The notes under the pieces are model-generated. The model was given only the letters and a program-made list of their open reading frames with translations. It searched no databases and had not been told where the DNA came from. A DNA stretch of 64,000 nt. Origin: Caldilineae bacterium. Its GTDB lineage: Bacteria; Chloroflexota; Anaerolineae; JAAEKA01. Below, in pieces: positions 2,502 to 42,825 of this stretch; within the stretch, counting starts at the first letter, position 1, and each line of letters starts with the position of its first letter. The translations under genes and the position numbers were made by a program. Where the stretch lies: NCBI GenBank assembly GCA_020634555.1, contig JACKBK010000018.1:987-64986 (forward strand), in the 5' to 3' direction.

Positions 2502-2539
2502 GGGGAGGAATGCAATGCGTGATGAACGCTTCGGAAGGG

Positions 2540-4112: not shown

Positions 4113-5195
<1,083 letters not shown>

Positions 5196-16308: not shown

Positions 16309-18603
16309 ATGCCACCAGAGTCCTTCATTCCTCGTCCCAAACAAGCCGAAGTGCTGGCCTACACCGGCGGCAAGATGGGCGTTTCGGCGGTGCCGGGCAG
16401 CGGCAAGACCGAAACGTTGTCCCGGCTGGCCGCGCAGCTCATCGCGGGCGGCAGCCTTGCCGGCCATCAGGAAGTGCTGGTGGTGACCCTGGTCAACTCG
16501 GCTGTGGACAACTTCTACCGGCGGGTCAGCAACCTGGTGAAGACGCGCGGGCTGCTGCCCCACGCGGGCTATCGGGTGCGCACGCTGCACGGCCTTTCCC
16601 ACGACATTGTGCGCGAGCGGCCGGCGCTGGTCGGCCTATCGGACAAGTTCGAGATCGTGGACGAGCGCAGCGCGGACGAAATACTGGGCGAGGCGGCCGC
16701 GGCCTGGCTGCGCGGCCATCCGTATACGCTGGAACGCTTCCTCGACCCGGCGCTGGAGTCCAGCAAGCTGGACTGGGTGCGGCGCGACCCACTGCTGGAC
16801 CAGGTCAAGGAGATCGCGCTGGCGTTCACCCGCATGGCCAAAGATCGCCAGTTGGCGCCGGAGCAGGTGCGTGACAAGTTGGATGGGCTGGTCAACCCGC
16901 TGCCGCTGGCCGAGATGGGCTGGGCGATTTACGCCGACTACCAGCGCGCGCTGGCTTACCGCGGCGCGGTGGACTTCGACGACCTGATCCGGCTGGCGCT
17001 GCTGGCGTTGCAGAGCGACGACAAAATGCTGGCCCGGCTGGGCGACCGCTGGCCCTTCGTTTTGGAGGATGAAGCTCAGGACAGCAGCCGCCTGCAGGAA
17101 CAGATTCTGCGCCTGCTCACCGGCCCCGATGGCAACTGGGTGCGGGTCGGCGATCCCAACCAGGCGATCTACGAGACGTTTACCACCGCCAGCCCGGACT
17201 ATCTGCGCGATTTTCTCGACGAAGAGGGTGTTGCCCGGCGGGAACTGCCCAACTCCGGCCGCTCCACCGAGAGCATCATCTGTCTGGCGAACCACCTGGT
17301 GACCTGGACGATGGACGAGCATCCGGTTCATGCGGTGCGTGATGCGCTGTCGCCGCCACCCATCCTGCCCGCGCCACCCGGCGACACGCAGCCCAATCCG
17401 CCCGACGACCCGGCGGCCATCTACTTGATGGGCAACAAGTTCAGCCCCGACGGCGAGTTGCGGGCCGTGGTCGAGTCGCTGGTGCGCTGGCTGCCGGAAC
17501 ACCCGGAAAGCACGGTGGCAGTGCTGACGCCGCGCAACAAGCGCGGCTTCGATGTGGTCGATGCTCTGCGGCAGCGCGATGTTGAGACGGTGGACAGCCT
17601 GCTGCGCAGCTCTACGTCGACCCGCAAGGCTGCCGGCGCACTGGCCAACGTGCTGCACCACCTGGCCGACCCGACCGCGCCGCAGCGGCTCGCCAGGGTC
17701 TTTCAGGTTTGGCGCCGCGCCGACCAGGAGGACCCGGAGGCGTGGCAGCATGTCTTGAAGCTCAGCAAGCTGTTGGCCGGTTGCCGTCAGGTGGAGGAAT
17801 ACGTCTGGCCGAGGGCAGGTCAGGACTGGCTGGCCGAGGCTGATCTCTCCGACGAGGACACGGCGTTGCTGGCGATGTTCCGCGGCGCCATCCAACGCTG
17901 GCAGGGAGCGATCGTGCTGCCGGTGGATCAACTGCTGCTGACGCTGGGCCAGGACCTCTTCACCGAGGCCAGCGACCTGGCGCTGACCCACAAGCTGGCG
18001 GTGACGCTGCGCCAGGCAGCCGAGCAGCATCCGCAGTGGCGCCTGCCGGAGTTGGCCGGCGAGCTGGCGGTCATCGCCCGCAACGAGCGCCGCTTCCTTG
18101 GGTTCAGCGACGAGGACAGCGGTTTTGATCCCAGCGCGTACAAGGGCAAGGTGGTGGTGGCGACGATGCACAAGGCGAAGGGGCTGGAGTGGGACCGGGT
18201 CTACCTGATGTCGGCCAACAGCTATGATTTCCCCTCCGGCCAACCCTACGACCAGTACATCGCCGAGAAATGGTTCGTGCGCGATGAATTGAATCTGGGC
18301 GCGGAGGCGCTGGCACAACTGGAGGCACTGTTGGATAATCAACTCATTTACCGCGAGGGCGATGCTACGGCGCAGGCGCGCCTGGATTACGTTCGCGAGC
18401 GGCTGCGACTGCTGTACGTCGGCATCACCCGGGCGAAGCAGGAACTTGTGGTGACGTGGAATTCTGGGCGTTCAGCAACCAGCAGGCCGGAGGCTGTTCA
18501 GGCGCTGCCCCTTGTTGCGTTGCAAAGCTATTGGGAACTGGGCGGCTGCCGGCAGGACGAGCCAGCGTACGCCGCTGAACCTGTCAAATTCAGGAGTGTT
18601 TGA
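16309..18603 (+). CDS. UvrD/Rep-type SF1 DNA helicase (AddA-like, lacking a RecB nuclease domain)
   Basis: ORF 16267..18603 opens on TTG; the first ATG is at 16309. Motif I AVPGSGKTETL, motif II FVLEDEAQDS, motif III VGDPNQAIY, motifs V/VI VATMHKAKGLEWDRVYL and LLYVGITRAKQEL. Confidence 0.9.
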   Translation: MPPESFIPRPKQAEVLAYTGGKMGVSAVPGSGKTETLSRLAAQLIAGGSLAGHQEVLVVTLVNSAVDNFYRRVSNLVKTRGLLPHAGYRVRTLHGLSHDIVRERPALVGLSDKFEIVDERSADEILGEAAAAWLRGHPYTLERFLDPALESSKLDWVRRDPLLDQVKEIALAFTRMAKDRQLAPEQVRDKLDGLVNPLPLAEMGWAIYADYQRALAYRGAVDFDDLIRLALLALQSDDKMLARLGDRWPFVLEDEAQDSSRLQEQILRLLTGPDGNWVRVGDPNQAIYETFTTASPDYLRDFLDEEGVARRELPNSGRSTESIICLANHLVTWTMDEHPVHAVRDALSPPPILPAPPGDTQPNPPDDPAAIYLMGNKFSPDGELRAVVESLVRWLPEHPESTVAVLTPRNKRGFDVVDALRQRDVETVDSLLRSSTSTRKAAGALANVLHHLADPTAPQRLARVFQVWRRADQEDPEAWQHVLKLSKLLAGCRQVEEYVWPRAGQDWLAEADLSDEDTALLAMFRGAIQRWQGAIVLPVDQLLLTLGQDLFTEASDLALTHKLAVTLRQAAEQHPQWRLPELAGELAVIARNERRFLGFSDEDSGFDPSAYKGKVVVATMHKAKGLEWDRVYLMSANSYDFPSGQPYDQYIAEKWFVRDELNLGAEALAQLEALLDNQLIYREGDATAQARLDYVRERLRLLYVGITRAKQELVVTWNSGRSATSRPEAVQALPLVALQSYWELGGCRQDEPAYAAEPVKFRSV

Positions 18604-23408: not shown

Positions 23409-24335
23409 TTACTTGCCCGACCACGCGGGATGGGAATAACTTGCGTCGTCGGTGGTCAGGCGGCGCACGTTTTGGCCGTCAGCGCTCATGATGTACAAAC
23501 TCTGGGTCCCATCGCGGTCGGACGAAAAGACGATTTCCTTGCCATCGGGCGACCACGCCGGCTCGCCGTCGTTGGAGTCCGCCTGGCTAAGATGCGTCGC
23601 TTGGCCGCTCTTGACATCCAGTAGCCAGATGTTGGCCACTCCGGTCTCCAGGTCTTGATTCATGAACACAATCTGGCGCCCATCTGGTGACCAGGCGGGA
23701 GTCCATTGCCGGCCATCCACCGAGGCAGTAACGTTGGTTGCGGGCGCGTCCTCAACAGGCTCCTGCAACATGATGCGGATCTCGTCGGTTATTTCCTGCG
23801 ATGCCAACTGCTTGCCGTCAGGCGACCACGAAGGATAGAGTGACTGGTCCTCGTAGTTGCCTGTAACACGTCTCATGTTGCTGCCGTCTGCATTCATCAC
23901 CCAGATCTCGAAACCGGCCTCGACCAGTTGCCGTCCTCCCTCCATTGGCACTTCGTAACTGCGCGTAGATGCGAACGCGATCTGTTGGCCGTCGGGCGAC
24001 CAGGCCGGCATCAGGCTGGCATAGGTCGCATCGGTGAGTGGCCGTTGATCGCTGCCATCCGCGTTCATCAGCATGATTACCGGCGAGCCCAGCCGTTCAG
24101 ACGCAAAAGCTATCTGCGTCCCGTCAGGCGACCAGGCCGGCGTGCCATCCCAACCGGGGTCGTCGGTCAGGCGGGTCAACCCTGTCCCGTCGGGGTTCAT
24201 GATGTACACATCGCTGTTGTCGCTTTCTTCGCGCTCGAATGCCAGCCGGCCCGCGGGCTGTGTGTTTCCAATACCGCTGCAACCGGCAAGAAACAAGGTT
24301 ACTGCCAGGCCGGCAAGCGCCAATCGTCGTATCAT
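23409..24335 (-). CDS. Lipoprotein with TolB-like WD40/PD40 beta-propeller repeats
   Basis: Lipobox LFLAGCSG. Repeated (P/T)AWSPDG(T/Q/K)(Q/E)I(A/V)F units occur 6 times. Confidence 0.8.
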   Translation of the reverse strand: MIRRLALAGLAVTLFLAGCSGIGNTQPAGRLAFEREESDNSDVYIMNPDGTGLTRLTDDPGWDGTPAWSPDGTQIAFASERLGSPVIMLMNADGSDQRPLTDATYASLMPAWSPDGQQIAFASTRSYEVPMEGGRQLVEAGFEIWVMNADGSNMRRVTGNYEDQSLYPSWSPDGKQLASQEITDEIRIMLQEPVEDAPATNVTASVDGRQWTPAWSPDGRQIVFMNQDLETGVANIWLLDVKSGQATHLSQADSNDGEPAWSPDGKEIVFSSDRDGTQSLYIMSADGQNVRRLTTDDASYSHPAWSGK

Positions 24336-30911: not shown

Positions 30912-31484
30912 ATGTCTCCGGAGACAACGCTCTATACCGGCGTTGGCGATGACGGCTACACCGGTGTTCTGGGCCGCGAGCGCGTAGCGAAATACGACCT
31001 TCAACCGGTTGCATACGGCACGTTGGATGAGCTGTCAGCCGCGCTGGGGCTGGCGCGCACTGGAAGTAAACACCCGCGCAGCAACGACATCATCGTCGAG
31101 ATACAGCGCGATCTGTACCGGGCGATGGCAGACATGGCTACGACACCCGAAGCAGCGGAACGGACAGGCGCCTGGTTGCCGGCCGACCGCGTCGCCTGGG
31201 TGGAGGAGATCATCGCCGAGGTTGGCGGTCAGGTCGAGATACCGCCGGCCTTCATCGTCAGCGGTGACAGCTACGGCGGCGCGCTGCTGGATGTGGCGCG
31301 CACGGTATGCCGGCGCGCCGAGCGCCATGTGGCCAGGCTGCACCACCAAGGAATGCTGTCCAACATCGAGGCGCTGCGCTACCTGAACCGGCTGTCATCG
31401 CTGTTGTTTGCGTTGTCACGGTTGGAAGACAAAGCTGCCGGTGTGGAGCAGTTCACATTAGCAAGATTGGAGAGAGGTTCATGA
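30912..31484 (+). CDS. ATP:cob(I)alamin adenosyltransferase, PduO type
   Basis: 190 aa. LYTGVGDDGYTGVLG N-terminus, IQRDLYRAMADM and RTVCRRAER are typical of the PduO/MMAB family. Confidence 0.85.
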   Translation: MSPETTLYTGVGDDGYTGVLGRERVAKYDLQPVAYGTLDELSAALGLARTGSKHPRSNDIIVEIQRDLYRAMADMATTPEAAERTGAWLPADRVAWVEEIIAEVGGQVEIPPAFIVSGDSYGGALLDVARTVCRRAERHVARLHHQGMLSNIEALRYLNRLSSLLFALSRLEDKAAGVEQFTLARLERGS

Positions 31485-32335
31485 GTCCGGTATTGGGATC
31501 CCACGTGTCCGCCGCGGGCGGCGTCAGCAAAGCGTTCGAACGCGCTCAGTCCATCGGCTGCCAAACCATGCAGATATTTACCCGCAACCAGAACCGCTGG
31601 GCAAGCAAGCCACTGGATCCATCCGAGATCAAGAAGTGGCACGCCGCGGCGGAAGAAACCGGCATCACGCCGACCATCTCACACGCATCCTATCTGATCA
31701 ACCTTGGCTCACCCGACGATGCCCTGTGGGAAAAATCTATCGACGCGCTGGTTGACGAGCTGCAGCGAGCCGAGGCGCTGGGACTGCTGGGGGTGGTGTT
31801 GCATCCCGGCGCGCATATGCAAGAGGGTGAGGATGCGGGCATCGCCCGCGTGGCCGCTGGTCTGGATCGCGCCCATCTGGCCACCGACGGCTTCAAAACG
31901 CTGACGCTGCTGGAGATCACCGCCGGGCAAGGGACAACCCTGGGCTACAAGTTCGAACACCTGGCAGCCATGCGCGCCCAGGCGGCCAACCCGGAACGAT
32001 TGGCGGTTTGTTTCGACACCTGCCATGCTTTCGCTGCCGGTTACGACTTCCGCGAGCCGGCCGGTTATGCGGCGATGATGGATGAGTTCGACGGCACCAT
32101 CGGGCTGGATCTACTCGCCTGCTTCCATTTCAACGACAGCAAAGGTGGGTTGGGTAGCCGCAAGGACCGCCACGAACACATCGGCCAGGGAGCAATCGGC
32201 GTCAGTGGCTTTGCGCACATTCTCAACGACCCGCGCTTCGCCGCCATTCCAATGATTCTGGAGACCCCCAAGAGCAAGGACATGCACGAGGACGTGGAGA
32301 ACTTCCAGGTCTTGCGCAGCCTGCTTGAGGATTGA
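31481..32335 (+). CDS. nfo: Deoxyribonuclease IV (endonuclease IV)
   Basis: ORF 31307..32335 trimmed to the ATG at 31481 (ATGA overlap). Motifs SHASYLINLGSPD, VVLHPGAH, LLEITAGQG, CFDTCHAFAAGYD, FHFNDSK and DRHEHIGQG. Confidence 0.9.
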   Translation: MSPVLGSHVSAAGGVSKAFERAQSIGCQTMQIFTRNQNRWASKPLDPSEIKKWHAAAEETGITPTISHASYLINLGSPDDALWEKSIDALVDELQRAEALGLLGVVLHPGAHMQEGEDAGIARVAAGLDRAHLATDGFKTLTLLEITAGQGTTLGYKFEHLAAMRAQAANPERLAVCFDTCHAFAAGYDFREPAGYAAMMDEFDGTIGLDLLACFHFNDSKGGLGSRKDRHEHIGQGAIGVSGFAHILNDPRFAAIPMILETPKSKDMHEDVENFQVLRSLLED

Positions 32336-32518
32336 CCGCATCTGTTGATGCCAACACTCGTCGTCGAGTATGAGTTTCATCGAATTGTAATCCCTGCCAG
32401 ATAATCCATGTGCTATGCTGAAATTGGCGTGCGTTCTGGAAATTTGACAGCGAAGCGGGTTGAAAGCGGTCAACCTGTCCCGGAACTCAAATAATGGGTC
32501 CGCGGACCCGCTGATACA

Positions 32519-33619
32519 ATGCGCATCGTCTACGTTCTCCTTTCCCCCACATTCGGCATGCACCAGTACACAGCCGACCTGGTGAACCGGTTAGCCGAGC
32601 AGGGACATGACGCAGCGCTGGTGACAACAACAACCTTGGCGCGCGATCGCTACAGCCCCGCTGTTCGAGTTGTCACCCCGATCACCACGCATAGTACCGG
32701 CTTTAGGGTTGAAGGGCTGCGCGTCTGGCAACTTCGGCGAGTAACGCAGGCAATCGATGCTCTGAAGCCCGAGGTTGTCCACATCACCGGTGTACATGCG
32801 TGGAACGTCCCTCTGGTGCGTTGGCTGCGAAGGAAGGGTATCCCCACAGTGCATACCCTACACGACCTGGATCCACATGCCGGTGTGCGCTTTAGTTCGC
32901 TGATCCGGCATTGGAATCGCCTGATTATTCGTTCTGTGGATCACCTGCTGGTCCATGGCAAGGTCTATGCACAACGATTGCTGGCGTCGGGATGCGATTC
33001 CAGCCGCGTTACCAGTGTGCCGTTGTTGCATCTTTTTCTCAGTTATGATGGATTTGCCAGCCTGGTCAACCGTGAAGTAAACTACAACGCGTGGGGCCTC
33101 TTTTTTGGCCGTTTTGAGAGTTACAAGGGCGTATCACAACTCATCGCAGCAGAGGACATGCTGGTCAAGTCTGATGCCGGCGTGAATCTTGTGCTTGCTG
33201 GAAAAGGGGTCCTGAACGCTGATGTTGCAGCCATCCCGACGGTGGAGGTTCGCAACCATCTCATCGGCGACGACGAAGCCGTGGCTCTCTTCCAGGATTG
33301 TGGAGTTTTAATCTTGCCTTATCTTGACGCGTCTCAGTCTGCACTGGTTGCAGCAGCCTACTTCTTTGCAAAGCCGGTCATCGTGACTGACGTCGGCGCT
33401 TTGGCCGAGTACGTTCAGCAAGGAGTAACAGGCTGGGTCGTTCCCGCCGGAGACTCCCGCGCGTTGGCCGACGCGTGGCGTGATGCACTGGCTGATACAG
33501 AGCGACTGCGACACATGGGTGAGTTAGGAAGAGCGTGGTACAACACTCAGCGGCAGCAGGAAGAGGCAGCGTTGATCGCTATGTACCTTGGGATGAGAAA
33601 AAAAGAGGATTTAGCATGA
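32519..33619 (+). CDS. Glycosyltransferase family 4 (GT-B fold)
   Basis: 366 aa. N-terminal MRIVYVL..GMHQY. C-terminal ..LILPYLDASQSALVAAAYFFAKPVIVTDVGALAEYV resembles the EX7E-region pattern. Confidence 0.8.
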   Translation: MRIVYVLLSPTFGMHQYTADLVNRLAEQGHDAALVTTTTLARDRYSPAVRVVTPITTHSTGFRVEGLRVWQLRRVTQAIDALKPEVVHITGVHAWNVPLVRWLRRKGIPTVHTLHDLDPHAGVRFSSLIRHWNRLIIRSVDHLLVHGKVYAQRLLASGCDSSRVTSVPLLHLFLSYDGFASLVNREVNYNAWGLFFGRFESYKGVSQLIAAEDMLVKSDAGVNLVLAGKGVLNADVAAIPTVEVRNHLIGDDEAVALFQDCGVLILPYLDASQSALVAAAYFFAKPVIVTDVGALAEYVQQGVTGWVVPAGDSRALADAWRDALADTERLRHMGELGRAWYNTQRQQEEAALIAMYLGMRKKEDLA

Positions 33620-35091
33620 AGCTGGAGACAACGGTTGTGAAACAACGCAACCAAACCCAGCGACGGCGGATAAGCTTGCCGCGGCTGAGAATCCGCACAT
33701 CAGAGCGCAAGATATTCCTTTTCTTGGTGGACATTCTGATCGTCAACCTGTCGTTGGCCATATCCTGGTTGCTGGCCGCCGACAGCGGCTTCACAGTCGA
33801 GACGATCACTGCCCCGTACAAGTGGTACCTCACGCTGACACTCGTCTGGTGCATCAGCGCCTTCATTTTCGACGTCTACAACCTGGCGCGGTCAGCCAGC
33901 ACCACCAACATCGTCCGCAACATCGCACTGGCCGGGGTGACTGCCGTGCTGGTCTACACGCTGATCCCCGTCCTCACACCGCCGCTTCAGAATCGAAGGC
34001 TGTTGTTCGTGTTCAGCGCGTTGGTAGTCGGCGGGCTGATTGCCTGGCGGATCGTCTATGCCCAATTGTTTGTGCAGCCACATTTTCGCCAGCGGGCCTT
34101 GGTAATCGGCGCCGGCTGGGCCGGGCGCACCCTCGTCGAGATGTTGAGCAGCGTCACCCACGACGCCAACCCATTCCGGGGTACCGGCTACGATCTGGTC
34201 GGGTTCATCGACGACAATCAGAAGCTGACGGGAACCACTGTTGCTGGTATACCGGTGTTGGGAGGGCGCAATGTGCTGGCACCTATGGCCAACGCGCTGC
34301 ACATCGACGAAGTGATTCTCGCTATCACACAGCGCCATGCCATCGCCGACGACCTGTTCGACGAGATGTTGCGCTGTCGCGAGCTGGGCATCCAGGTGAC
34401 GACCATGTCCAGTGTGTACGAGAAACTGACCGGTCGGGTGCCGGTGCAACATGTGGGACGCGATCTGTATCTGGCGCTTCCGTCGGGCGATCGTGCATCG
34501 GAACGAATTTACTTGGGCATGAAGCGGCTGATTGATCTGGCTATTGCGGCGCTGGGACTGGTGGTCTTGGCGATTGTAGCCGCGGGAGTTTGGGTCGGCA
34601 ACCGCCTCCGCTCCCCAGGCCCGTTGCTCTATCGCCAGGAGCGAGTCGGGAAAGGAGGCCGGTGCTATCAGGTCTACAAGTTTCGTTCCATGATTCCAGA
34701 TGCGGAGGCGACCACCGGCGCGATCTGGGCAACGGCTGACGACAACCGCATCACTCCTGTAGGACGCTTCCTGCGCAAGACACGCCTGGACGAGTTGCCA
34801 CAGTTGATCAACGTACTCAAGGGTGAGATGAGCCTGATCGGGCCACGCCCCGAGCGTCCGGAGTTCGTGGACCACCTGGCTGACACCATTCCGTTCTACC
34901 GTGCTCGGCATGCTGTGCGCCCCGGCATTACCGGCTGGGCGCAGGTTTGCTACCGCTATGGAAGTTCACCGGACGACGCCCGGATCAAGCTGGAGTACGA
35001 CCTGTACTACGTCAATCGCATGAGTCCGCTGCTCGACATTCGCATCATCCTAAGAACCGTTCAGGTCATGCTTGAACTCAAGGGACAGTAA
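33616..35091 (+). CDS. Polyprenyl-phosphate sugar-phosphate transferase (large WbaP/EpsB-type initiating phosphoglycosyltransferase)
   Basis: ORF 33535..35091 trimmed to the ATG at 33616 (ATGA overlap with the GT4 stop). N-terminal TM bundle and Rossmann-like ALVIGAGWAGR. C-terminal catalytic domain YKFRSM..DELPQLINVLKGEMSLIGPRPERPEF. Confidence 0.9.
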   Translation: MKLETTVVKQRNQTQRRRISLPRLRIRTSERKIFLFLVDILIVNLSLAISWLLAADSGFTVETITAPYKWYLTLTLVWCISAFIFDVYNLARSASTTNIVRNIALAGVTAVLVYTLIPVLTPPLQNRRLLFVFSALVVGGLIAWRIVYAQLFVQPHFRQRALVIGAGWAGRTLVEMLSSVTHDANPFRGTGYDLVGFIDDNQKLTGTTVAGIPVLGGRNVLAPMANALHIDEVILAITQRHAIADDLFDEMLRCRELGIQVTTMSSVYEKLTGRVPVQHVGRDLYLALPSGDRASERIYLGMKRLIDLAIAALGLVVLAIVAAGVWVGNRLRSPGPLLYRQERVGKGGRCYQVYKFRSMIPDAEATTGAIWATADDNRITPVGRFLRKTRLDELPQLINVLKGEMSLIGPRPERPEFVDHLADTIPFYRARHAVRPGITGWAQVCYRYGSSPDDARIKLEYDLYYVNRMSPLLDIRIILRTVQVMLELKGQ

Positions 35092-35096
35092 TTTGT

Positions 35097-35381
35097 ATGA
35101 GTAATATCGACATCCGCAGACCAATTCATCATCCCTCCACTGCATCACGAGTCTTCGGCAGCGACGCGGTGGTCATTAGCCCAACCGAGAACATGGTGCG
35201 TATGTTGAACCCCGTCGGCTCGCGCATCTGGCAACTGACCGATGGCAGCAACACCATCGAAGATATTGCGGTCACATTGACCCAGGAGTTCGAGGTAGAC
35301 CTCCCACACGCGCGGCAAAGTGTTGCCGGCTTTGTCGAAGACCTGGTGGATAGAAATCTACTGGACTGGTCGGAGTCTTGA
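35097..35381 (+). CDS. PqqD-family protein (RiPP recognition element / peptide chaperone type)
   Basis: 94 aa, beginning 5 nt after the sugar-transferase stop. RMLNPVGSRIWQLTDGSNTIEDIAVTLTQEFEVDLPHARQSVAGFVEDLVDRNLLD follows the PqqD consensus. Confidence 0.8.
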   Translation: MSNIDIRRPIHHPSTASRVFGSDAVVISPTENMVRMLNPVGSRIWQLTDGSNTIEDIAVTLTQEFEVDLPHARQSVAGFVEDLVDRNLLDWSES

Positions 35382-35397
35382 GCCTGAGTATTGCACT

Positions 35398-37047
35398 TTG
35401 ACAACTGAACAGCTTACAATCTCTCCACTTCCGTCGGTTCGTCGCTTTGAAGCAGTGCTGGAGTGGCTGGCCAATCGCCCACCAATCGTGTGGCGGCTGC
35501 TGGCGTTTGGCCTTGTGGCCGCGATGACCGTCCTGGCGATCCGTCAGGCCAGCATCAGTATCGACGGCGTTCGCTACTTCTGGCTCGACGACGACCAGAT
35601 GATCTCGATGCGCTATGCGCGCAATCTGGCTGAGGGACACGGGTTAGTCTGGAACCCCGGTGAGCGCGTTGAGGGCTACAGCAACTTCCTGTGGACGCTG
35701 GTTATGGCGGGTGTGCATTTGTTGCCGCTGCCGGACGCCACCACCTCGTTGGCCGTCAAGCTGATCAACCTGGGGCTGGCGTTCGCCGTGTTGCTGCTGG
35801 CTGAGCAGTTGCTACGGCGCTTCCTGCCCAAACCTGGTCTGGCGCTGCCGGCTGTGCTGCTGACCCTGGCCTTGTGCGGTGACCTGTTGTACTGGTCAGC
35901 CAACGGTTTTGAGACAACACTGCTGACGGTCATCTTTCTGGCTGTTGTGGTTCGCTTGCTGGACGAGGAGCAGACCGGCCAGCCGCGGCTGTTAACCTAC
36001 CTGTTGATGGGGCTGCTGCCGCTGGTGCGCAGCGATGCCCTGCACATCTGGCTTGGGACAGCGATTCTGGCCTTCGGGATCAGTGGGAATCGGAAGAAGA
36101 CTGTGGTCTTTCTGGCTGTATCCCTTGTCTTGCCGGTACTGCAGGTGGTGGGGCGGCGATGGTACTACGGCGACTGGCTGCCGAACACGTATTATCTGAA
36201 GGTGTACGGCATCGAAGGGCTACCGCGCATCGGCATCGGTTACGTGCGTTTTTTCGTTCATAACTATGCAGTCGCCCTGTTGTTAGCGGTTTTGGGAGCT
36301 TTTCTGGCAGCGCAGCGACGTTGGTGGCTGTTGTTGGCCGGCGTCGGCATCAGCATGGGCTACAGCGTCATGATCGGTGGCGACATCTTTGAGTTCTCGC
36401 GTTTTCTGGCCCATGAGGTTCCAGTGATTCTGGTGCTGGCGGCAGTGGCCGCAGTGCAGTTTGGAGCACGTTGGAACTTGATCGGTTCGTTTCTCGTCCT
36501 GGCAGCGTTATCGATCGCTACACTGGCTGGCGCCGGCGTGGTCTATCCTGACAAGCTGTACTCCAGAAACGGCGGCCTGGAGTACTCAACTGTCGCCGGA
36601 GTTCTGATCGATCGTTATTCGGCCCCGGAGTCCAGTGTTGCAGTAATTGCGGCAGGCGGTATACCGTATTTCAGCCATCGCTACAGCATTGACCTGCTGG
36701 GAAAATCGGATCCTGTTATTGCTCACCGCGCCCCAGTCTGTTGCAACGATGTAATCGGACACAACAAATTTGATGTGGACTACAGTTTGAGCAAGAAACC
36801 GGACATGTTTGTGCCCTTGCTGCCCGATGAGTTGAATCAGTTCGACTGGTGGCTTGATTACCAGGAGCGCGAGTTCGGTGTGTCGTATAACTCAACAATC
36901 GTCAGGAATCCGATATTTCGCAAGGAGTACCTGTCTAACCCAGTTCAGATCGACTTTTTGCTAGAGAAAATGCCCATCTACGTTCGTAGCTCGTCAAGCG
37001 AGATGGAGACACTTTCACTGTGGCAAGCGCCACAGGTTTCCCGCTAA
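35398..37047 (+). CDS. Polytopic GT-C-like membrane glycosyltransferase (arabinofuranosyltransferase-like)
   Basis: ORF 35320..37047. The ATG at 35320 overlaps the PqqD-family gene by 62 nt, so TTG 35398 or GTG 35455 are the likelier starts (uncertain). The first loop carries YFWLDDDQMISMRYARNLAEGHGLVWNPGERVEGYSNFLW, an acidic DDD motif as in GT-C enzymes. More than 10 TM helices. Confidence 0.65.
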   Translation: MTTEQLTISPLPSVRRFEAVLEWLANRPPIVWRLLAFGLVAAMTVLAIRQASISIDGVRYFWLDDDQMISMRYARNLAEGHGLVWNPGERVEGYSNFLWTLVMAGVHLLPLPDATTSLAVKLINLGLAFAVLLLAEQLLRRFLPKPGLALPAVLLTLALCGDLLYWSANGFETTLLTVIFLAVVVRLLDEEQTGQPRLLTYLLMGLLPLVRSDALHIWLGTAILAFGISGNRKKTVVFLAVSLVLPVLQVVGRRWYYGDWLPNTYYLKVYGIEGLPRIGIGYVRFFVHNYAVALLLAVLGAFLAAQRRWWLLLAGVGISMGYSVMIGGDIFEFSRFLAHEVPVILVLAAVAAVQFGARWNLIGSFLVLAALSIATLAGAGVVYPDKLYSRNGGLEYSTVAGVLIDRYSAPESSVAVIAAGGIPYFSHRYSIDLLGKSDPVIAHRAPVCCNDVIGHNKFDVDYSLSKKPDMFVPLLPDELNQFDWWLDYQEREFGVSYNSTIVRNPIFRKEYLSNPVQIDFLLEKMPIYVRSSSSEMETLSLWQAPQVSR

Positions 37048-37159
37048 GACAGCACCTGAACGTGTTCGCTGGTATTGTCTAGCCTTGATCTCTACCGCTA
37101 TTTGCTGGCAAAATAACCGGAGCATCGGAAGTCTGTCTTGAGAAGGCAACGCCCGGCTA

Positions 37160-37188
37160 TTGACACTTTCTCTTGCACATGCTAGAAT
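37160..37188 (+). promoter_or_regulatory. Sigma-70-type promoter for the radical SAM + peptide unit
   Basis: TTGACA, a 17-nt spacer, then TAGAAT, about 60 nt upstream of the rSAM start. Confidence 0.55.
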
Positions 37189-37249
37189 TGCCCCGCGCAA
37201 TGGAGTATGTTTCTTGAAAACACGATGGACTGGAGTGGCTTGAAACAAC

Positions 37250-38473
37250 GTGTATAAGCAAACGAGGCAAACCGTTGAGGTGGCTTTCGCAGGGTGCGAG
37301 CTTCCTGGCCCATCAGACGATCCTTATGAAGCCCTGCTGTTTCGCCTTAAGCAAGAGTTTGTTCCGCTGACCGTTCTGTGGGAGTTAACACACAAATGCA
37401 ACCTAGATTGCATCATGTGCTACAATGTCCCACTAGGCCAGTCTGAGTTGACCACGGTTGAATGTTTTAACGTTCTGGAGCAACTTGCGTCTGCAGGCAC
37501 TCTATACCTGACATTTACTGGTGGTGAGATTCTATCGAGGCGAGATTTTTTTCAGATTGCCCAGCATGCGCGATCTCTTGGATTTGCCGTCAGCCTCAAA
37601 ACCAATGGCACGTTGATTACGCCCGAAAAGGCCGATCAAATCGCCGCTCTCGCACCATTGCGGGTTGACATCAGTTTACTTGGCGCGACTGAAAAGACCT
37701 TCGATGCCATTGCCGGCAGCAAGGACACATTGCGACGAGTGTTGCGTGGTGTGAGGTTGTTGCAGGAACGCAACGTACGTGTAAAGCTTCTGTCGTTGCT
37801 GATGGACTTGAACATGCCCGAGCGCGAGCAGATGATCGACCTGGTGATGGAACTGGGCGTAGACTACGAGCAAGCGTTCAAGATATCCACGGCTGACGAT
37901 GGCACAGACAAAGCAGGTGATCATCAACTCTCCCGTGAACAGATGACAGAGGTTCTTGCGGTGGACCACACGCCATTCAGGCCACGGACCGTGAATGCGA
38001 CCTCGCGTACTTGTTCGGTAAGTCTGAGTTCATGTCTGGTGGATCCGTACGGCAACTTGTTGCCTTGCATCGAGTTGCGTATCCCTGCGGGCAATCTGCG
38101 AAATAAGCCGTTCTCCGAGCTATGGTCTAACGGCGGGATTTTCCGTCAACTGCGAAATCAGCATGTCATGAAGAACCTGCCCGATTGCTGGATATGTCCA
38201 ATCAACCGCTATTGCGAAGGGCGCTGTTCTGGATTGGCTCTTAAGGAACACGGAGACCTTTATGGCGGCCATCTGTTGGCGTGCCAGCAGGCACAGGCCC
38301 GTTTTGCATCGATCTTTCCCAATGAACGGGTCCCAGTAACGCCGCTTCAAACACGCCTGCACGGCTCAACAGTCAAGCGACCCGGATCACCACAAGTCGG
38401 CCAACCGATTCCGCTGTTAGAAGGGGTCAACGTTCACCCAACCTTCTTTATGGAAACGAACGGGTCAGTATAG
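37250..38473 (+). CDS. Radical SAM enzyme with a C-terminal SPASM domain (peptide-maturase type)
   Basis: 407 aa with a GTG start. CNLDCIMC (CxxxCxxC) followed by TFTGGEILSRRDF. SPASM cysteines CSVSLSSCLVDPYGNLLPC .. CWICPINRYCEGRC .. C. Confidence 0.85.
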   Translation: MYKQTRQTVEVAFAGCELPGPSDDPYEALLFRLKQEFVPLTVLWELTHKCNLDCIMCYNVPLGQSELTTVECFNVLEQLASAGTLYLTFTGGEILSRRDFFQIAQHARSLGFAVSLKTNGTLITPEKADQIAALAPLRVDISLLGATEKTFDAIAGSKDTLRRVLRGVRLLQERNVRVKLLSLLMDLNMPEREQMIDLVMELGVDYEQAFKISTADDGTDKAGDHQLSREQMTEVLAVDHTPFRPRTVNATSRTCSVSLSSCLVDPYGNLLPCIELRIPAGNLRNKPFSELWSNGGIFRQLRNQHVMKNLPDCWICPINRYCEGRCSGLALKEHGDLYGGHLLACQQAQARFASIFPNERVPVTPLQTRLHGSTVKRPGSPQVGQPIPLLEGVNVHPTFFMETNGSV

Positions 38474-38498
38474 CACTCAAAAGTCAAAGGAGCATACC

Positions 38499-38693
38499 AT
38501 GAAGACTTTCGATTATTCGACCAACAACCATTCCGTTCAGCGCGCTCCTCAGCCGTGGCAAGAGCCAGCCATCGCCTTCGAACGTTCGCTGATGGCGGAA
38601 GCCCAGGATGGCATCGGTCCTCGCAATGCACCTTCCGGTATCTTGGGGCCGCTTGCCACATCCGGGAGTACTACCACCTCCACTTGTCTTTAG
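38499..38693 (+). CDS. Small 64-aa ORF; candidate RiPP precursor peptide
   Basis: Starts 25 nt after the rSAM stop, with a strong AAAGGAG 6 nt before the ATG. Sequence MKTFDYSTNNHSVQRAPQPWQEPAIAFERSLMAEAQDGIGPRNAPSGILGPLATSGSTTTSTCL, with a Ser/Thr-rich C-terminus and a single Cys. No homology evidence is available. Confidence 0.5.
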   Translation: MKTFDYSTNNHSVQRAPQPWQEPAIAFERSLMAEAQDGIGPRNAPSGILGPLATSGSTTTSTCL

Positions 38694-38709
38694 TACAGTT
38701 TGGCTGCGC

Positions 38710-38762
38710 CTGATCCAGACCTACCTGAACAGTGCTAGGTGGTTCTACCAGGTCTGGATCAG
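38710..38762. other. Long hairpin downstream of the small ORF; possible terminator or processing site
   Basis: CTGATCCAGACCT (38710-38722) pairs perfectly with AGGTCTGGATCAG (38750-38762). The loop is 27 nt and there is no U-tract. Confidence 0.4.
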
Positions 38763-38907
38763 ATAGCGTAGCTCTCTTTAGATTCGCTGAAATCGGCTGA
38801 TGCCAGACCAAGCCGTGTCGCTCCTTCAACGACATGGCTTTTTTGTATGGCTGCAAAGGTTTATAGGATTGTAACAAATCGTCCCCAGGCGCTATGGTAT
38901 AATTATC

Positions 38908-39012
38908 GTAACAGCTCAGCCCTCACTGCTGCGTCCCTCCCGCCTCCGCGGGAGTCTAGTGCCCGCGAAGCCTTGATTCCTGCTTCCGCGGGAATGACGG
39001 GTGAGCAGTTGC
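38908..39012. mobile_element. Short (105 bp) variant of the GTAAC-terminus MITE family, copy D
   Basis: Termini GTAACAGCTCAGCCC / GGGTGAGCAGTTGC. The interior retains CTCCGCGGGA and TTCCGCGGGAATGAC modules. It lies in the 5' region of the C25 peptidase gene. Confidence 0.7.
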
Positions 39013-39072
39013 TAGTTAACGAATAACAACGGCAAACACTGAATAGTCTAAGGCTCGATTAAGGAATACATC

Positions 39073-42000
39073 ATGCGATCACAATTCTGGAAGTCCCTCT
39101 TTCTAATTGCCGTAGTGGCAACGTTGGCAGGAATTCCCCCTGCAACCGATGCTCAGGTAAGCCAACAGGTTACGAAGCGCCGCATTCAAACTCCACTGTA
39201 TGATCTTTCGTCTACCGGGCTTTCAGTTCCCGACAGTGCCACGAACAATGTACCCGGTGCACCGCAGTTGCCTGTCAAAGGCTTTACTGTTCAAGTGCCC
39301 ATGGCAGAAAGCTGGGCTGTGACATTTGAGTCGACAGGAAGCCAGATCTTGCCGGACTCCGTGGTTATCCCCTCAGTTCCAGTGCCCGACCTGAATTTGA
39401 ATACACCAGCAAACTGGTCAAGTGACCTGGACAGTTTGCCATCAGCCGTTCCTGTCGTTGATCAACCTGATGCGTCGATCTATGCTGTCAACGCATTCTA
39501 TCCCGAATCACCGGTCGTTGTGGGTGAGGCGCAGATTCAAAATGGTCAAAAGGTGTTACCGGTTCGCGTCTTCCCTTTCCAGTACAATCCGATTACACAC
39601 CAGGTCCGTTATCATCCCGACATAGAGGTCACTGTCACGGTATCAGGAGCAGGAGTCCCGGAAACAACCGCCACCGTTGCGGAGGATTATAGTGGTCAGG
39701 CTGTGCCGGAGACCGCAGGAAGGGTTCTGCGTATTCACACTGAACAGCGTGGCTTTTACCATCTTACCTATGATGATTTGTTGGCTGCTGGGGTTACAGT
39801 GGGGCCGGGCGGGAGGAACCCAAACAACTTCGCGATGGTGTACAAAGGCGATCCGATCGACATCCAGTTGACCGGAGCTGATGACAACAGCTTCGACCAG
39901 GGTGATTTGGTAGTTTTTTACGCTGTGCCGTATGACCTGGGTCGATACCAGGACTACAACGTCTACTATTTCCTCGAGGACGGAGCTGCGTATGCGTCAC
40001 AAATCGCCTCCCGGCCTGTCACCGCGAGCTTCACACCGACCACTGCTTCAGCTATCACGCAGACATTGCATGTGGAACAGAACCTGGACTATCGCTCAAC
40101 CTATGAACGCCCTAAGCGTGACGATCATTTCTTTGATACTGCGGTTTTTGCCAACGTGTCTACTCCAGTGGTCACGCGTACCTACGCATTAACGCTTGAT
40201 GATCCATTGGCGGTTTCCGGCGACGCTAAGCTTTCTGCGGTGATACACGGCGGCGACGATAGCAACGTCACCTTCAACCCGGACCAGTCGATGCGCCTGC
40301 GATTCAACAACCAGGACATCGGTATGTATCAATGGGACGGCAGTGTGGACTATACTGTTGATGAGATTGTGCCGGCCGCCTCGCTCCAGACAAACTCCTC
40401 TGTCGACTTGACTGTTGCCCTCAACCAGCTCCCCGGTATCACAAGCTATTGGGTATCTCCCGATTGGGTCGAGTTGACCTATCCGGCCCTGGCCGACGCA
40501 GAGAACGACCGTATGTTCATCGAGGGTGTTGTCGCCGGCGGCGGCAACATCGTCACGACTGGCTTCTCGACCAGCAGCGTATCAGTTTATGACGTGCGCG
40601 ACCCGATCGCTCCCAAACTCCTGAGCGGGGTCGGCGCTCAACTTGACGGGTCTTCCTATTCGATCTACTGGACAGAGACCGAAGCGCAACCAGCTTACTT
40701 TCTCACCACAGAAACCGCCATACTCGCGCCGATCGCTATCGAAGTTGACCAACCATCAGGCTGGCGTTCACCCACAAACGACTTCGATTACATCGCCATT
40801 ATTGGAACTGAGCGCAATGCGACCGGCACGACATCGCTAGGCGCAGAGCTAGGCAATGCCGTTCAACCGCTGCTGGACCATCGCAGCGCCGAGGGGCTTC
40901 TGGTGGCCAAGGTAAACCTGCAGGATGTCTACGACGAGTTCAGTAACGGGTTCGTCGATCCGGATGCAATCCGCGCTTTTCTCACCTATGCATACAACAA
41001 TTGGCAGCGACAACCACGTTACGTTCTCCTTGTAGGGGATGGACATTATGCATTCCGTAACGAAGTTTCAACTGCTTTGCACAACACTTTACCCCCCTAT
41101 CTAGTGCATGTTGACCCTTGGATCGGTGAGGTTCCGGCTGACTCTCGCTTCGTGAGTGTGGATGGAGAGGACGACTATCTACCGGAGATGGCTATCGGCC
41201 GCATTCCGGCCAACAGCGCGGCAGACGTGACCGCTGTTGTCAACAAGACACTGGCATATGAAGACGCCGTGGCAACACCGGACGGCGACTGGAACCTGCG
41301 TTCCGTCTACGTCGCTGACAACTATTCGGATCCTGCCGGAGACTTTCATGCCTTGAGCGACAACGTGCGTCTCAACTGGCTGCCTTCTTTGTACACCGGC
41401 CAACAGGTCTACTACCGTATGGACCCGGACCACGATACCGGCCCTGAAATGCGCACAGCTATCAAGAATGCGTTCAACCAGGGAGCCGTATTTTTACAGT
41501 GGTTCGGTCATGGTTCCACAGTTCGCTGGGGATCAGTCAGCATGTACAACATTCTGGACCCAGCCAATTTAACTCCAACCGGACAAACACCCCTTACCAT
41601 GCACAATGCCTGCTGGACCGGTTACTTCGCGGTTTTGTCTAACAACTACCAGGCCCTCGGAGAGACATTGGTGAGCGTTCCCAATAAAGGTTCCGTCGCC
41701 GACTACTCCCCCAGCGGGCTGCATATCGGCGCGGCGCTTCTGACGCTGGACCAAGGCATGCACAAGGCTATGTTCAAGGACCGGATCCCGCGAGCCGGCG
41801 ACGTCGTCAAGGCCAGCAAGGACTACTTCTTCGCCAACAGCCTCGCCTACCACGACCTGATCGACTCGATGATCTTCTTCGGCGATCCGGCTCTGGAATT
41901 GCGTCTGCCTACTGCGGACTTCTCTGATTCCACCATGGAAGTTAGCGAGACGACGGCCGACCCTGGTGACACACTGAACTACACCGTCACGCTTACCAAC

Positions 42001-42825
42001 ACCAGCGTGTTTACAGCACCAAATGTCATCCTGACTGCTGATTATCCGCAGAATCTGGTGACAGTGGTCGACGCAGGCGGCGCAGTTGACAACGGCGACA
42101 CGTTGACGTGGACTCTCTCAGACGTGCGGACTGCGGATGCCGATTCAGCGGTCAAGACGTTCTCATTGGCTGTCAACTCTGGCCTCGCGCCCGGACTGTA
42201 CAACGTGACTGTTCCTGGGCAGATTACCAGCGACATCTCATCGCCTGCCGATCTTCAGGTCAACACCGAGGTAAACGCCGCGCCGCTCATGGTCAACTCG
42301 ACATTGCTTGCCCAGCGCGCCTGGATTCCACCCGGCATGCCTGTCACCGTAACCGCAATGCTGCTGAACTACGGCACCGCTCCCTCTCTGGGGACCCAAG
42401 TCACGCTCACCTTGCCCTCTGAACTGGGTGAGCCAACGTGGATGGCTGCCTCAACAGGTTCGACTCCTGTCTACGACGCCGGCGCCCGCCAGGTCCTTTG
42501 GTCCGGTGATATACTAATAGGCGGCGACGAGACAGTATCATTCAGCAGCATTGTGTCTCCCACCCTGACGGCCTGCGGTACTTTCACGGTGACAGGAGAA
42601 GTGACCGACACCCTTGGCGTGCTGACACCGCTCGATGTGGCCGTCAACCTGGCTGTGCCTGACGTCAACTGTACCGGCAGCGTGAACGTGGTGGATGTCC
42701 AACTCGTCGCTGGCCGCTGGGGAGCGACTCTCGGCCAGCCCGAATACCTGTACGAGTATGACCTGAACGGCAACGACGCCATCGATGTCAACGACATCAT
42801 CATCGCCGCCAATCACTGGGAGTGA
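39073..42825 (+). CDS. Secreted 1250-aa peptidase C25 (gingipain-like) family protein with Ig-like/CARDB-type repeats and a C-terminal dockerin-like module
   Basis: Signal peptide MRSQFWKSLFLIAVVATLAGIPPATDAQ. C25 core VLLVGDGHY, His region WFGHGS and Cys region MHNACWTGYF. C-terminal DVNCTGSVNVVDVQLVAGRWG..YDLNGNDAIDVNDIIIAANHWE forms a duplicated Ca-binding dockerin-type segment. Confidence 0.8.
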   Translation: MRSQFWKSLFLIAVVATLAGIPPATDAQVSQQVTKRRIQTPLYDLSSTGLSVPDSATNNVPGAPQLPVKGFTVQVPMAESWAVTFESTGSQILPDSVVIPSVPVPDLNLNTPANWSSDLDSLPSAVPVVDQPDASIYAVNAFYPESPVVVGEAQIQNGQKVLPVRVFPFQYNPITHQVRYHPDIEVTVTVSGAGVPETTATVAEDYSGQAVPETAGRVLRIHTEQRGFYHLTYDDLLAAGVTVGPGGRNPNNFAMVYKGDPIDIQLTGADDNSFDQGDLVVFYAVPYDLGRYQDYNVYYFLEDGAAYASQIASRPVTASFTPTTASAITQTLHVEQNLDYRSTYERPKRDDHFFDTAVFANVSTPVVTRTYALTLDDPLAVSGDAKLSAVIHGGDDSNVTFNPDQSMRLRFNNQDIGMYQWDGSVDYTVDEIVPAASLQTNSSVDLTVALNQLPGITSYWVSPDWVELTYPALADAENDRMFIEGVVAGGGNIVTTGFSTSSVSVYDVRDPIAPKLLSGVGAQLDGSSYSIYWTETEAQPAYFLTTETAILAPIAIEVDQPSGWRSPTNDFDYIAIIGTERNATGTTSLGAELGNAVQPLLDHRSAEGLLVAKVNLQDVYDEFSNGFVDPDAIRAFLTYAYNNWQRQPRYVLLVGDGHYAFRNEVSTALHNTLPPYLVHVDPWIGEVPADSRFVSVDGEDDYLPEMAIGRIPANSAADVTAVVNKTLAYEDAVATPDGDWNLRSVYVADNYSDPAGDFHALSDNVRLNWLPSLYTGQQVYYRMDPDHDTGPEMRTAIKNAFNQGAVFLQWFGHGSTVRWGSVSMYNILDPANLTPTGQTPLTMHNACWTGYFAVLSNNYQALGETLVSVPNKGSVADYSPSGLHIGAALLTLDQGMHKAMFKDRIPRAGDVVKASKDYFFANSLAYHDLIDSMIFFGDPALELRLPTADFSDSTMEVSETTADPGDTLNYTVTLTNTSVFTAPNVILTADYPQNLVTVVDAGGAVDNGDTLTWTLSDVRTADADSAVKTFSLAVNSGLAPGLYNVTVPGQITSDISSPADLQVNTEVNAAPLMVNSTLLAQRAWIPPGMPVTVTAMLLNYGTAPSLGTQVTLTLPSELGEPTWMAASTGSTPVYDAGARQVLWSGDILIGGDETVSFSSIVSPTLTACGTFTVTGEVTDTLGVLTPLDVAVNLAVPDVNCTGSVNVVDVQLVAGRWGATLGQPEYLYEYDLNGNDAIDVNDIIIAANHWE

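Follow-up and report, generated by a model that had tools for sequence, protein, structure and literature searches.

A candidate radical SAM/SPASM peptide pathway of Chloroflexota encoded with a secreted PorU-like C25 peptidase

Several described systems share parts with the locus considered here, a group of genes in 64,000 nucleotides of DNA from a Caldilineae bacterium (contig JACKBK010000018.1; the whole stretch is referred to as the window) that encode a stand-alone PqqD-family protein, a membrane protein resembling fold-C (GT-C) glycosyltransferases, a radical S-adenosylmethionine (rSAM) enzyme with a SPASM domain, a 64-aa peptide and a large secreted peptidase of family C25. The sactipeptide and ranthipeptide pathways (AlbA/subtilosin, SkfB, CteB/SCIFF and PapB/freyrasin) have in common with this locus a full SPASM domain, an adjacent leader-dependent precursor, a core Cys and a PqqD-type element. 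In those pathways, however, the recognition element (RRE) for peptides made by ribosomes and modified after translation (RiPPs) is an N-terminal domain, whereas here it would be a separate protein, the core holds one Cys, and the partner protease is a large secreted C25 protein. The mycofactocin (MftA-F) and pyrroloquinoline quinone (PQQ; PqqA, PqqD and PqqE) systems likewise combine a stand-alone PqqD-family chaperone with an rSAM/SPASM enzyme and a small peptide, and the W-x-x-P motif of the peptide described below resembles the PqqA leader. SynChlorMet (ScmC/D/E/F) and HPr-rel-A, two NCBIfam/TIGRFAM systems of predicted function, share the theme of an HprK-like protein, PqqD and rSAM/SPASM, while PorU and the gingipains (Peptidase_C25, clan CD) share the His/Cys-dyad catalytic domain, an N-terminal region that resembles a propeptide and a secreted multi-domain build. 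We propose that the locus is, on balance, probably an uncharacterised RRE-dependent rSAM/SPASM peptide pathway whose product would be handled by an extracellular clan CD peptidase and glycosylated in a clade-specific manner.

The evidence that carries this proposal is the conservation of the gene set. A search of a large protein collection with the window rSAM enzyme recovered 289 relatives at E <= 1e-10, nearly all of them unnamed or labelled Chloroflexi/Anaerolineae, and 79 rSAM loci came from scanning GTDB at one genome per species. The top 48 of these are all labelled Chloroflexota, with an rSAM identity to the window of 49-76%, and include Anaerolineales, Caldilineales, Thermoflexales, Ardenticatenaceae, Ca. 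Amarolinea and Litorilinea; past locus 48 the identity drops sharply to <=37% and the loci belong to other phyla. The loci were compared by tblastn with the window proteins and by clustering of all open reading frames (ORFs), and with six further loci the core was counted in 54 loci in all. PqqD lies 5' of the rSAM gene in every one of the 52 loci having upstream sequence, a homologous small peptide ORF was found in 49 of the 52 with at least 450 nt downstream of the rSAM gene, and wherever at least 6 kb of downstream sequence was available (30 loci) the C25 catalytic domain is encoded. What is conserved is thus a unit of PqqD, the rSAM/SPASM enzyme, the peptide and the secreted C25 peptidase. 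The initial annotation of the window, made from its sequence alone, had grouped PqqD, the GT-C protein, the rSAM enzyme and the peptide into one RiPP-like system. Its peptide, rSAM enzyme and PqqD stand as a conserved RiPP-type unit, but the universal fourth partner, C25, lies just past the region it described and had been overlooked. In most loci the peptide starts no more than 450 nt from the rSAM stop codon, the exceptions being the loci designated L009, L020 and L029. Ca. Amarolinea and a relative (L009, 11182-11767; L032, 1027-1611) have a small gene pair inserted between the rSAM gene and the precursor; the N-termini (MKLIFEWDA.KARANL.KH...) are toxin-antitoxin-like, and the resemblance to BrnT/BrnA was judged by eye only.

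What began as a guess from a single window has thus become a defined gene family, with a four-gene core in about 50 species-level Chloroflexota genomes and relatives in several phyla, in which a precursor motif stands out clearly and the accessory genes fall into three architectures. When the peptide, the rSAM enzyme and the distant relatives were scanned with Pfam and NCBIfam, no curated family model was reached at cutoff. The literature searched on rSAM, PqqD or SPASM together with peptidase C25, gingipain, PorU in Chloroflexi, SynChlorMet or exopolysaccharide did not describe the cassette, and a survey of Anaerolineae metagenomes counted such cluster types, uncharacterised, only as 'RRE-containing' and RiPP (including 'ranthipeptide'). 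The parts are of known kinds, while the family, the precursor motif and the coupling to C25 and to polysaccharide genes appear to be undescribed; the earlier view that the combination is not a described RiPP class agrees with both the family models and the literature searched.

The alignment of 46 peptides shows a variable N-terminus, an invariant leader, (R/K)xxW-E-x-P-x-I-x-L-E-R-x-L-E-x-x-A-Q, a Pro/Gly-rich linker of variable length and a terminal block, G-(F/L)-L-G-P-L-x-(T/A)-S-G-G-x-G-x-C, followed by 0-10 residues. The W, P, E-R, G-P-L and S positions and the single Cys near the C-terminus are each conserved at >=90%. In the window peptide the leader reads W20-Q-E-P-A-I-A-F-E-R-S-L and the C-terminal block G-P-L-A-T-S-G-S-T-T-T-S-T-C-L, the ORF ending in ...LATSGSTTTSTCL. 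The ratio of nonsynonymous to synonymous substitution (dN/dS, Nei-Gojobori) was 0.07-0.43 in all 18 pairs of peptide genes with unsaturated dS. Two loci carry two precursor copies each (L005, 9180-9368 and 11155-11382; L012, 9145-9333 and 11189-11377), one 5' of PqqD and one after the rSAM gene. These copies differ at their N-termini and are identical from the leader Trp to the C-terminus. Since dS between the copies is 0.83 (dN 0.11), this identity argues that both are maintained.

A short ORF without a match in Pfam, NCBIfam or Rfam, in a window whose G+C-rich DNA holds short ORFs frequently, might be a chance ORF or the regulatory leader of the C25 gene and not a functional peptide gene. 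We give this next to no probability, because its amino-acid sequence is kept in 49 of 52 loci and includes invariant motifs, its dN/dS is well under 1, it is preceded by a strong Shine-Dalgarno sequence, a terminator-like hairpin separates it from the C25 gene, and its duplicates were kept in L005 and L012. The reading as a non-functional ORF is effectively refuted by the conservation data, and the reading as a regulatory upstream ORF was rejected on conservation, dN/dS and the intervening terminator. On this comparative evidence the 64-aa ORF is a real gene under purifying selection, and the earlier expectation that it would be conserved beside rSAM homologues was borne out.

The rSAM enzyme has the features expected of a peptide maturase. 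The radical-SAM motif C50-x3-C54-x2-C57 is invariant in 29 homologues, as are all cysteines of the SPASM signature (C255-x12-G-x4-C273, C313-x2-C316-x5-C322-x3-C326 and C345), which make up the full seven-Cys set for two auxiliary clusters. In a profile search of the Protein Data Bank (PDB), PqqE (6c8v, 5.6e-22) and SkfB (6efn, 4.3e-18) ranked first, and the matches that cover the full length of the enzyme are the peptide maturases StsB, MftC, AlbA and PqqE. No NCBIfam model was reached at cutoff, the window enzyme scoring below the threshold in every case (StsB 116 against 625 bits, AlbA 53 against 850, SkfB 55 against 300, MftC 115 against 265 and PqqE 112 against 381). The highest-scoring matches, to the heme synthases AhbD and NirJ, cover the N-terminal radical-SAM half only (AhbD residues 42-236), and identity with these enzymes was rejected (AhbD 145 against 500 bits, NirJ 120 against 515), so that the enzyme does not fall in a curated non-RiPP family; the anaerobic sulfatase maturases gave no full-length match above cutoff either. 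From its sequence it is a typical peptide-modifying SPASM enzyme with no assigned family. The window PqqD protein matches Pfam PF05402 with 58.8 bits against a cutoff of 23.4, over profile positions 2-67 of 67, and its top NCBIfam match is ScmD, below cutoff (4.6e-11, 43 against 100 bits). That the peptide is the substrate of the rSAM enzyme and is recruited by PqqD can be proposed with high confidence from these sequence relationships. For RiPP enzymology the family would provide an rSAM/SPASM enzyme that has its RRE in a separate protein and a substrate with only one Cys.

A pathway to a peptide-derived redox cofactor would also draw on parts of these kinds, namely a chaperone of the PqqD type, a small peptide with its rSAM/SPASM enzyme, a peptidase and a glycosyltransferase. 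Mycofactocin likewise undergoes trimming by a peptidase as well as glycosylation, the rSAM enzyme has PqqE and MftC among its best full-length matches, and the window PqqD stands alone like MftB and PqqD. An analogue of mycofactocin or PQQ biosynthesis is nevertheless very unlikely. Besides the MftC and PqqE scores given above, the downstream cofactor enzymes are absent, with none of MftD/E/F, PqqB/C or a partner dehydrogenase in the neighbourhoods; the peptidase and the GT-C protein act outside the cytoplasm; and the conserved residue is a Cys, in place of the C-terminal Tyr or the Glu-Tyr pair on which the chemistry of those systems depends.

For the product of the rSAM enzyme a thioether at the conserved Cys is favoured, mainly because Cys-containing cores occur throughout the wider rSAM group; by analogy with such cores we hold this with moderate to low confidence. 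The rSAM homologues of other phyla (30-37% identity; Elusimicrobia, Omnitrophota, Dehalococcoidia, Planctomycetota, Actinomycetota, Nitrospirae and others) lie in loci that retain the layout of HprK-like protein, PqqD and rSAM, frequently with NTP_transf_5, Wzz or an initiating polyprenyl-phosphate glycosylphosphotransferase (PGT). Their adjoining small ORFs encode (K/R)x(Y/W)-E-K-P-x-I-x-x-E-K-I-x-E-T-x-A-L-A-C-G-K-C..., with two to six Cys, and no NCBIfam model matched these candidate precursors. Matches to SynChlorMet and HPr-rel-A, with which this layout shares its theme, all lie far under the cutoffs (for the window proteins ScmD as above, ScmE 77 against 400 bits and ScmF 66 against 400; a further match 31 against 125), and the window has no HprK-like or ScmC-like gene in its 64 kb. 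C25 and this peptide family lie outside the NCBIfam and Pfam models searched.

The C25 protein of the window has its catalytic domain at about residues 592-943, together with a signal peptide, a region resembling the C25 propeptide, a repeat of the DUF11/CLIPPER type and a dockerin-like C-terminus, and signal-peptide-like N-termini were present in all 30 full-length orthologues. Its top NCBIfam match is PorU, under the cutoff (1.3e-52, 179 against 420 bits), and its top PDB match is also PorU (6za2, 3.3e-13), followed by RgpB. The His of its GHGS motif aligns with the GHG of PorU and RgpB, and the Cys of NACWTG aligns with the RgpB Cys, one column off the Cys of PorU. Judged by these matches the protein is PorU-like and is not a PorU orthologue. 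Residues 1188-1249 (42634-42822) match a dockerin-type cellulosomal segment (PDB 2b59_B, E 6e-4), which hints that the C25 protein may dock to another surface protein. Clustering by single linkage had placed further ORFs downstream of C25 in the same family, and these were rejected as paralogues: the ones that resemble the window C25 but lack its catalytic region are pieces produced by frameshifts in long-read assemblies, and the others, such as a 513-aa protein of L080, have no match to it at E 1e-5.

Two observations argue that the link between the peptide and C25 is functional and not only a matter of synteny. In L020 the precursor (18304-18513) is 7.3 kb downstream of the rSAM gene and directly upstream of C25, so that the peptide has stayed with the peptidase, and C25 is found again next to distant cassettes (L064, L072-L074), which come from Planctomycetota, Actinomycetota and another Anaerolineales locus. 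Our confidence that C25 acts on the peptide, drawn from this gene order, is moderate to low. No C25 enzyme coupled to an rSAM-modified peptide was found in the literature searched, and the family would thus be the first candidate link between such a peptide and a clan CD peptidase of the PorU/gingipain type.

The likeness to PorU raises a different role for the same genes. C25 might act as a transpeptidase, as do PorU, GPI (glycosylphosphatidylinositol) transamidase and butelase of clan CD, and join the rSAM-modified peptide, or a cargo by way of the peptide, to a glycan or glycolipid made by the PGT, the family 4 glycosyltransferase (GT4), Wzz and the GT-C protein; such a surface-conjugation or sorting system would use the peptide as a structural adaptor in the Chloroflexota envelope or exopolysaccharide, and it would not be a free natural product. 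PorU is the nearest relative of C25 in both PDB and NCBIfam, C25 is the only universal partner, the L020 peptide is split from its rSAM gene yet next to C25, and the dockerin-like module at the end of the window protein would suit such a role, as would the polysaccharide genes that 19 of 38 loci have within or next to the cassette, contiguous in several. The set of C25, HprK-like, PqqD, rSAM, NTP_transf_5 and Wzz genes also recurs in a Planctomycetales locus (L074). However, the PorU match is far below its cutoff, PorV, PorZ, C-terminal-domain cargo proteins and other genes of the type IX secretion system (T9SS) were not seen in the cassette neighbourhoods, the minimal type, about one locus in three, has no glycan gene closer than 10 kb, and an exporter for the peptide is not evident. 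A T9SS is not known from Chloroflexota. We therefore consider surface conjugation rather unlikely. Its fullest form, in which an rSAM-crosslinked peptide is joined outside the cell by C25 to a glycan or lipid-linked polysaccharide, as an envelope conjugate or sorting adaptor, with the glycan either made by PGT, GT4, Wzz and GT-C or attached through phospho-glycosylation by the HprK-like protein and NTP_transf_5, is quite unlikely. If true, it would mean a sortase-like role for C25 outside type IX secretion and a RiPP as a structural part of the cell surface.

Beyond the core, the cassettes differ in the genes that accompany them. An HprK-like protein with best profile matches to ScmC, HprK_rel_A and HprK_rel_B was found in 25 loci, NTP_transf_5 (Pfam 1.6e-50) in 20, Wzz/BY-kinase in 13 and a small protein with an S24/S26-like GTSMxPTL motif in 11; 13 loci have a PGT gene in the 10 kb upstream of the cassette, and GT4 genes are also recurrent. 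Three layouts can be recognised. The minimal layout, A, is PqqD-rSAM-peptide-C25. Layout B is (PGT-GT4-Wzz)-NTP_transf_5-(S24-like)-HprK-like-PqqD-rSAM-peptide-C25, with genes that are often contiguous (L018, L025 and L047). Layout C, that of the window clade, is GT4-PGT-PqqD-GT-C-rSAM-peptide-C25, and a search through all 64 kb of the window found none of the HprK-like, NTP_transf_5, S24-like and Wzz genes. In one minimal-type cassette a gene for a PrmA-like methyltransferase (L080, 8475-9461) overlaps the start of PqqD.

The pair found in layout B, an HPr-kinase homologue and NTP_transf_5 beside PqqD, is the same as that of the phosphorylated and phospho-glycosylated lasso peptides paeninodin and pseudomycoidin, and the peptide here also has a near-invariant Ser. 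In lasso precursors the kinase homologue phosphorylates the C-terminal Ser, and in pseudomycoidin the nucleotidyltransferase adds a hexose to the phosphate (PMC8498205). By this analogy layout B may phospho-glycosylate the near-invariant Ser of the peptide, and in layout C glycosylation of the peptide may be achieved by another route. The Chloroflexota cassette differs from the lasso pathways in lacking the lasso cyclase (Asn_synthase) and the B2 protease, and the window clade has the GT-C protein in place of the kinase and transferase pair. PGT, GT4 or Wzz genes occur in or near the cassette in 19 of the 38 loci with at least 8 kb upstream. A glycan link to the peptide is plausible, glycosylation being deduced from gene content, and the frequency with which cassettes sit in polysaccharide loci suggests that they may act at the cell surface. 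Chloroflexota are abundant in sludge, soils and sediments, and their cell envelope is poorly understood.

The GT-C protein has no match in Pfam and only a weak AftB-like match in NCBIfam (4.5e-7). Its first loop carries the sequence YFWLDDDQM, in which D65 and D66, the DD motif, are at least 90% conserved among homologues. The AlphaFold model, built with 32 homologues, had a mean local confidence (pLDDT) of 93 and a predicted template-modelling (TM) score of 0.92. In a Foldseek search against PDB it matched AftB first (9dlh, E 8e-8, TM 0.58-0.60), then STT3, AglB and PglB, and then ALG9 and ArnT, with E from 1e-7 to 1e-3 overall. On the strength of this model the membrane protein has a GT-C fold, in agreement with its initial annotation. 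It shares the fold (TM 0.5-0.6), the DD motif in the first outer loop and the polytopic build with AftB, PglB/AglB/STT3, ArnT and PMT, but differs from these known enzymes in its low identity to them (<=19%), in belonging to no Pfam family, and in its unusual position between PqqD and rSAM genes.

That position turned out to be local. A GT-C gene lies between PqqD and rSAM only in the window, L001, L004, L040, L166, L167 and L168, and the GT-C protein is a lineage-specific insert and not part of the conserved system, contrary to the initial annotation. In addition L166 has a GT87 gene (2958-4385) and L168 an SGNH/AlgX-like gene (2135-3322) between PqqD and rSAM, and in the window clade this slot acts as a hot spot at which glycan-modifying genes are inserted. 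The Ser/Thr-rich tail (SGSTTTxxC) of the peptide, first taken to be characteristic, is likewise confined to the clade with GT-C, the tail being Gly-rich in all others. All six readable tails of the window clade are Ser/Thr-rich, five having SGSTTT or SGTTIT and L166 having SGGTQPT. The exchange of the HprK-like/NTP_transf_5 pair for GT-C, together with the change of the peptide tail, would offer a natural experiment on peptide glycosylation.

The GT-C family as a whole is large (1,328 matches). Among 80 metagenome loci of the wider family, one had PqqD with NTP_transf_5 and another a weak HprK-like match only, and a pairing of GT-C with PqqD as a property of the family was rejected on this count. 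The initial annotation had named as a refuting finding that the pair occur generally in polysaccharide loci that lack a peptide; the wider GT-C family, which mostly stands without PqqD or a peptide, bears this out in part. The five close homologues (48-51% identity) are divided between lasso-type loci (two) and unrelated or polysaccharide contexts (three). The lasso-type loci P0137 (JGI 3300041966) and P0159 both hold PqqD, Transglut_core3, Asn_synthase and NTP_transf_5, to which P0137 adds ScmC with an adjoining PrmA-like gene, Wzz and Wzy_C; the set of L083, with its close GT-C homologue, is that of P0159. These lasso-like loci suggest that PqqD-guided peptides are more widely associated with polysaccharide genes, in a way not yet described, and GT-C is an occasional recruit of PqqD-guided peptide pathways and not their constant partner.

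It is quite possible, though we do not think it probable, that GT4, PGT and GT-C are not aimed at the peptide at all and serve polysaccharide or glycolipid synthesis or the O-glycosylation of C25, the adjacency to PqqD reflecting co-regulation or a chance insertion in one clade. This would agree with a widespread GT-C family that has no PqqD nearby in 79 of 80 metagenome loci, with the ordinary or polysaccharide contexts of three of the five close homologues, and with the nearest structure, AftB, which extends a polysaccharide and not a peptide; the correlation of GT-C with the peptide tail, moreover, is one evolutionary event. It is harder to reconcile with the repeated gain of glycan genes (GT-C, GT87 and SGNH-type) in the PqqD-rSAM slot of the window clade and the co-occurrence of the Thr-rich tail with them, with the packing of PqqD into the GT4-PGT-PqqD-GT-C run (an ATGA overlap and a 5-nt gap), or with the fact that the equivalent place in other clades is held by a different, peptide-glycosylating pair. 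Our confidence that GT-C itself glycosylates the peptide is low.

Returning to the proposed peptide pathway, gene presence, folds, conservation, purifying selection and synteny form the observed layer on which it is built, and the reactions are proposals. PqqD would bind the leader W-E-x-P-x-I-x-L-E-R-x-L-E, as expected from knowledge of its family, and present the G-P-L-x-T/A-S-G-x...C block to the rSAM enzyme. The core would then be modified, most likely by joining the invariant Cys to an upstream residue in a thioether of the sactionine or ranthionine type. Once exported, the peptide would be processed by C25 through removal of the leader or transpeptidation, as their strict co-occurrence suggests. 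In the window clade alone, GT-C might finally add a sugar to the Thr-rich tail outside the membrane, the sugar possibly being supplied by the co-operonic PGT and GT4, while in other clades the HprK-like kinase and NTP_transf_5 might phosphorylate and then glycosylate the near-invariant Ser, as in paeninodin and pseudomycoidin.

Several points weigh against this pathway. With a single Cys the acceptor residue is not identifiable from the sequences, which makes the thioether something of a guess, and a defined ring would not usually go with a spacing from Ser to Cys that varies from 3 to about 10 residues. The profile of the Chloroflexota peptides recovers the precursors of other phyla only at E about 1, and the similarity of the leaders across phyla is to be read as resemblance and not as homology. 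C25 and the active site of GT-C are extracytoplasmic, yet a signal sequence is missing from the peptide and the cassette neighbourhoods hold no conserved exporter, which makes export the main gap of the model. At 750-1,440 aa and with many domains, C25 is an atypical leader peptidase. For the glycosylation step, the rarity of the GT-C/PqqD pairing and a tail correlation that rests on one clade have been mentioned. Furthermore, AftB-type GT-C enzymes use polyprenyl-monophosphate sugars, which are made by GT2 enzymes, and a GT2 enzyme is absent from the window gene cluster. Since PGT and GT4 would not make such a donor, their earlier assignment as the source of the GT-C donor is tentative.

The features of the cassette in the window are collected in Table 1.

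Table 1. Coordinates of the cassette and its adjoining elements in the window.
Feature	Position	Strand	Basis
GT4 glycosyltransferase	32519..33619	+	Pfam Glyco_trans_4_4 1.8e-20, Glycos_transf_1
Initiating polyprenyl-phosphate glycosylphosphotransferase (PGT)	33616..35091	+	Pfam Bac_transf 6.2e-65; NCBIfam TIGR03025
Stand-alone PqqD-family protein, 94 aa, presumed RRE	35097..35381	+	Pfam PqqD 6.9e-16
GT-C-fold membrane glycosyltransferase	35398 (TTG) or 35320 (GTG)..37047	+	AlphaFold and Foldseek
Predicted sigma-70-like promoter, 5' of the rSAM gene	37160..37188	+	TTGACA-17-TAGAAT
Radical SAM/SPASM enzyme, presumed peptide maturase	37250..38473	+	Pfam Radical_SAM 2e-22, SPASM 9.6e-7
Shine-Dalgarno sequence AAAGGAG, 6 nt 5' of the peptide ATG	38486..38492	+	read from sequence
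Candidate precursor peptide, 64 aa	38499..38693	+	homologous ORFs in related loci
Long hairpin (38702-38773), then terminator-like hairpin (38810-38840) and U-run	38702..38846	+	RNA fold
Secreted Peptidase_C25 (PorU/gingipain-like), 1250 aa	39073..42825	+	Pfam Peptidase_C25 8.4e-73

The GT4 gene opens the dense GT4-PGT-PqqD-GT-C run and overlaps the PGT gene by ATGA, and 5 nt separate the PGT stop codon from the PqqD ORF. These junctions, the membrane protein with its DDD loop, the promoter, the rSAM gene and the peptide gene were all found where the initial annotation had placed them. A GT4 orthologue occupies the equivalent position in L001, L004, L040 and L167, and the PGT protein scores above the TIGR03025 cutoff in the NCBIfam scan (375 against 295 bits). 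The GT-C gene could start at TTG 35398 or at GTG 35320, giving 549 or 575 aa; since its homologues are about 549 aa long, the TTG is probably the true start.

The promoter matches the consensus at 11 of 12 positions, has a TG extension and is the top-scoring site within 32-43 kb, a region in which promoter-like sites are no more numerous than in shuffled sequence; as predicted from sequence, it is a consensus match. The peptide ORF starts 25 nt after the rSAM stop codon, and with the terminator-like hairpin after the peptide the rSAM and peptide genes look like one transcription unit. The fold of 38694-38860 has an energy of -66.8 kcal/mol (z = -4.5 against shuffles), and the hairpins in this region are likely to mark the end of the rSAM-peptide transcript. 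The terminator at 38810-38840 has a loop of 9 nt and was therefore missed by a simple terminator scan. No Rfam family was matched in a scan of 35.0-39.2 kb, and an RNA element was rejected as the explanation of the region.

The G+C content across 32000-42000 is 0.53-0.59, compared with about 0.60-0.65 in most of the remaining window. Upstream of the cassette lie genes for cob(I)alamin adenosyltransferase (30912-31484) and endonuclease IV (ending at 32335), which are syntenic with L166 and L167, so that the position of the cassette appears stable within the clade. On the strand opposite to the cassette the window encodes a TolB/PD40-like beta-propeller protein (23469-24251), which lies about 8 kb upstream of GT4 and has 29% identity (E 9e-18) to a family found inside the layout B cassettes of 10 other loci.

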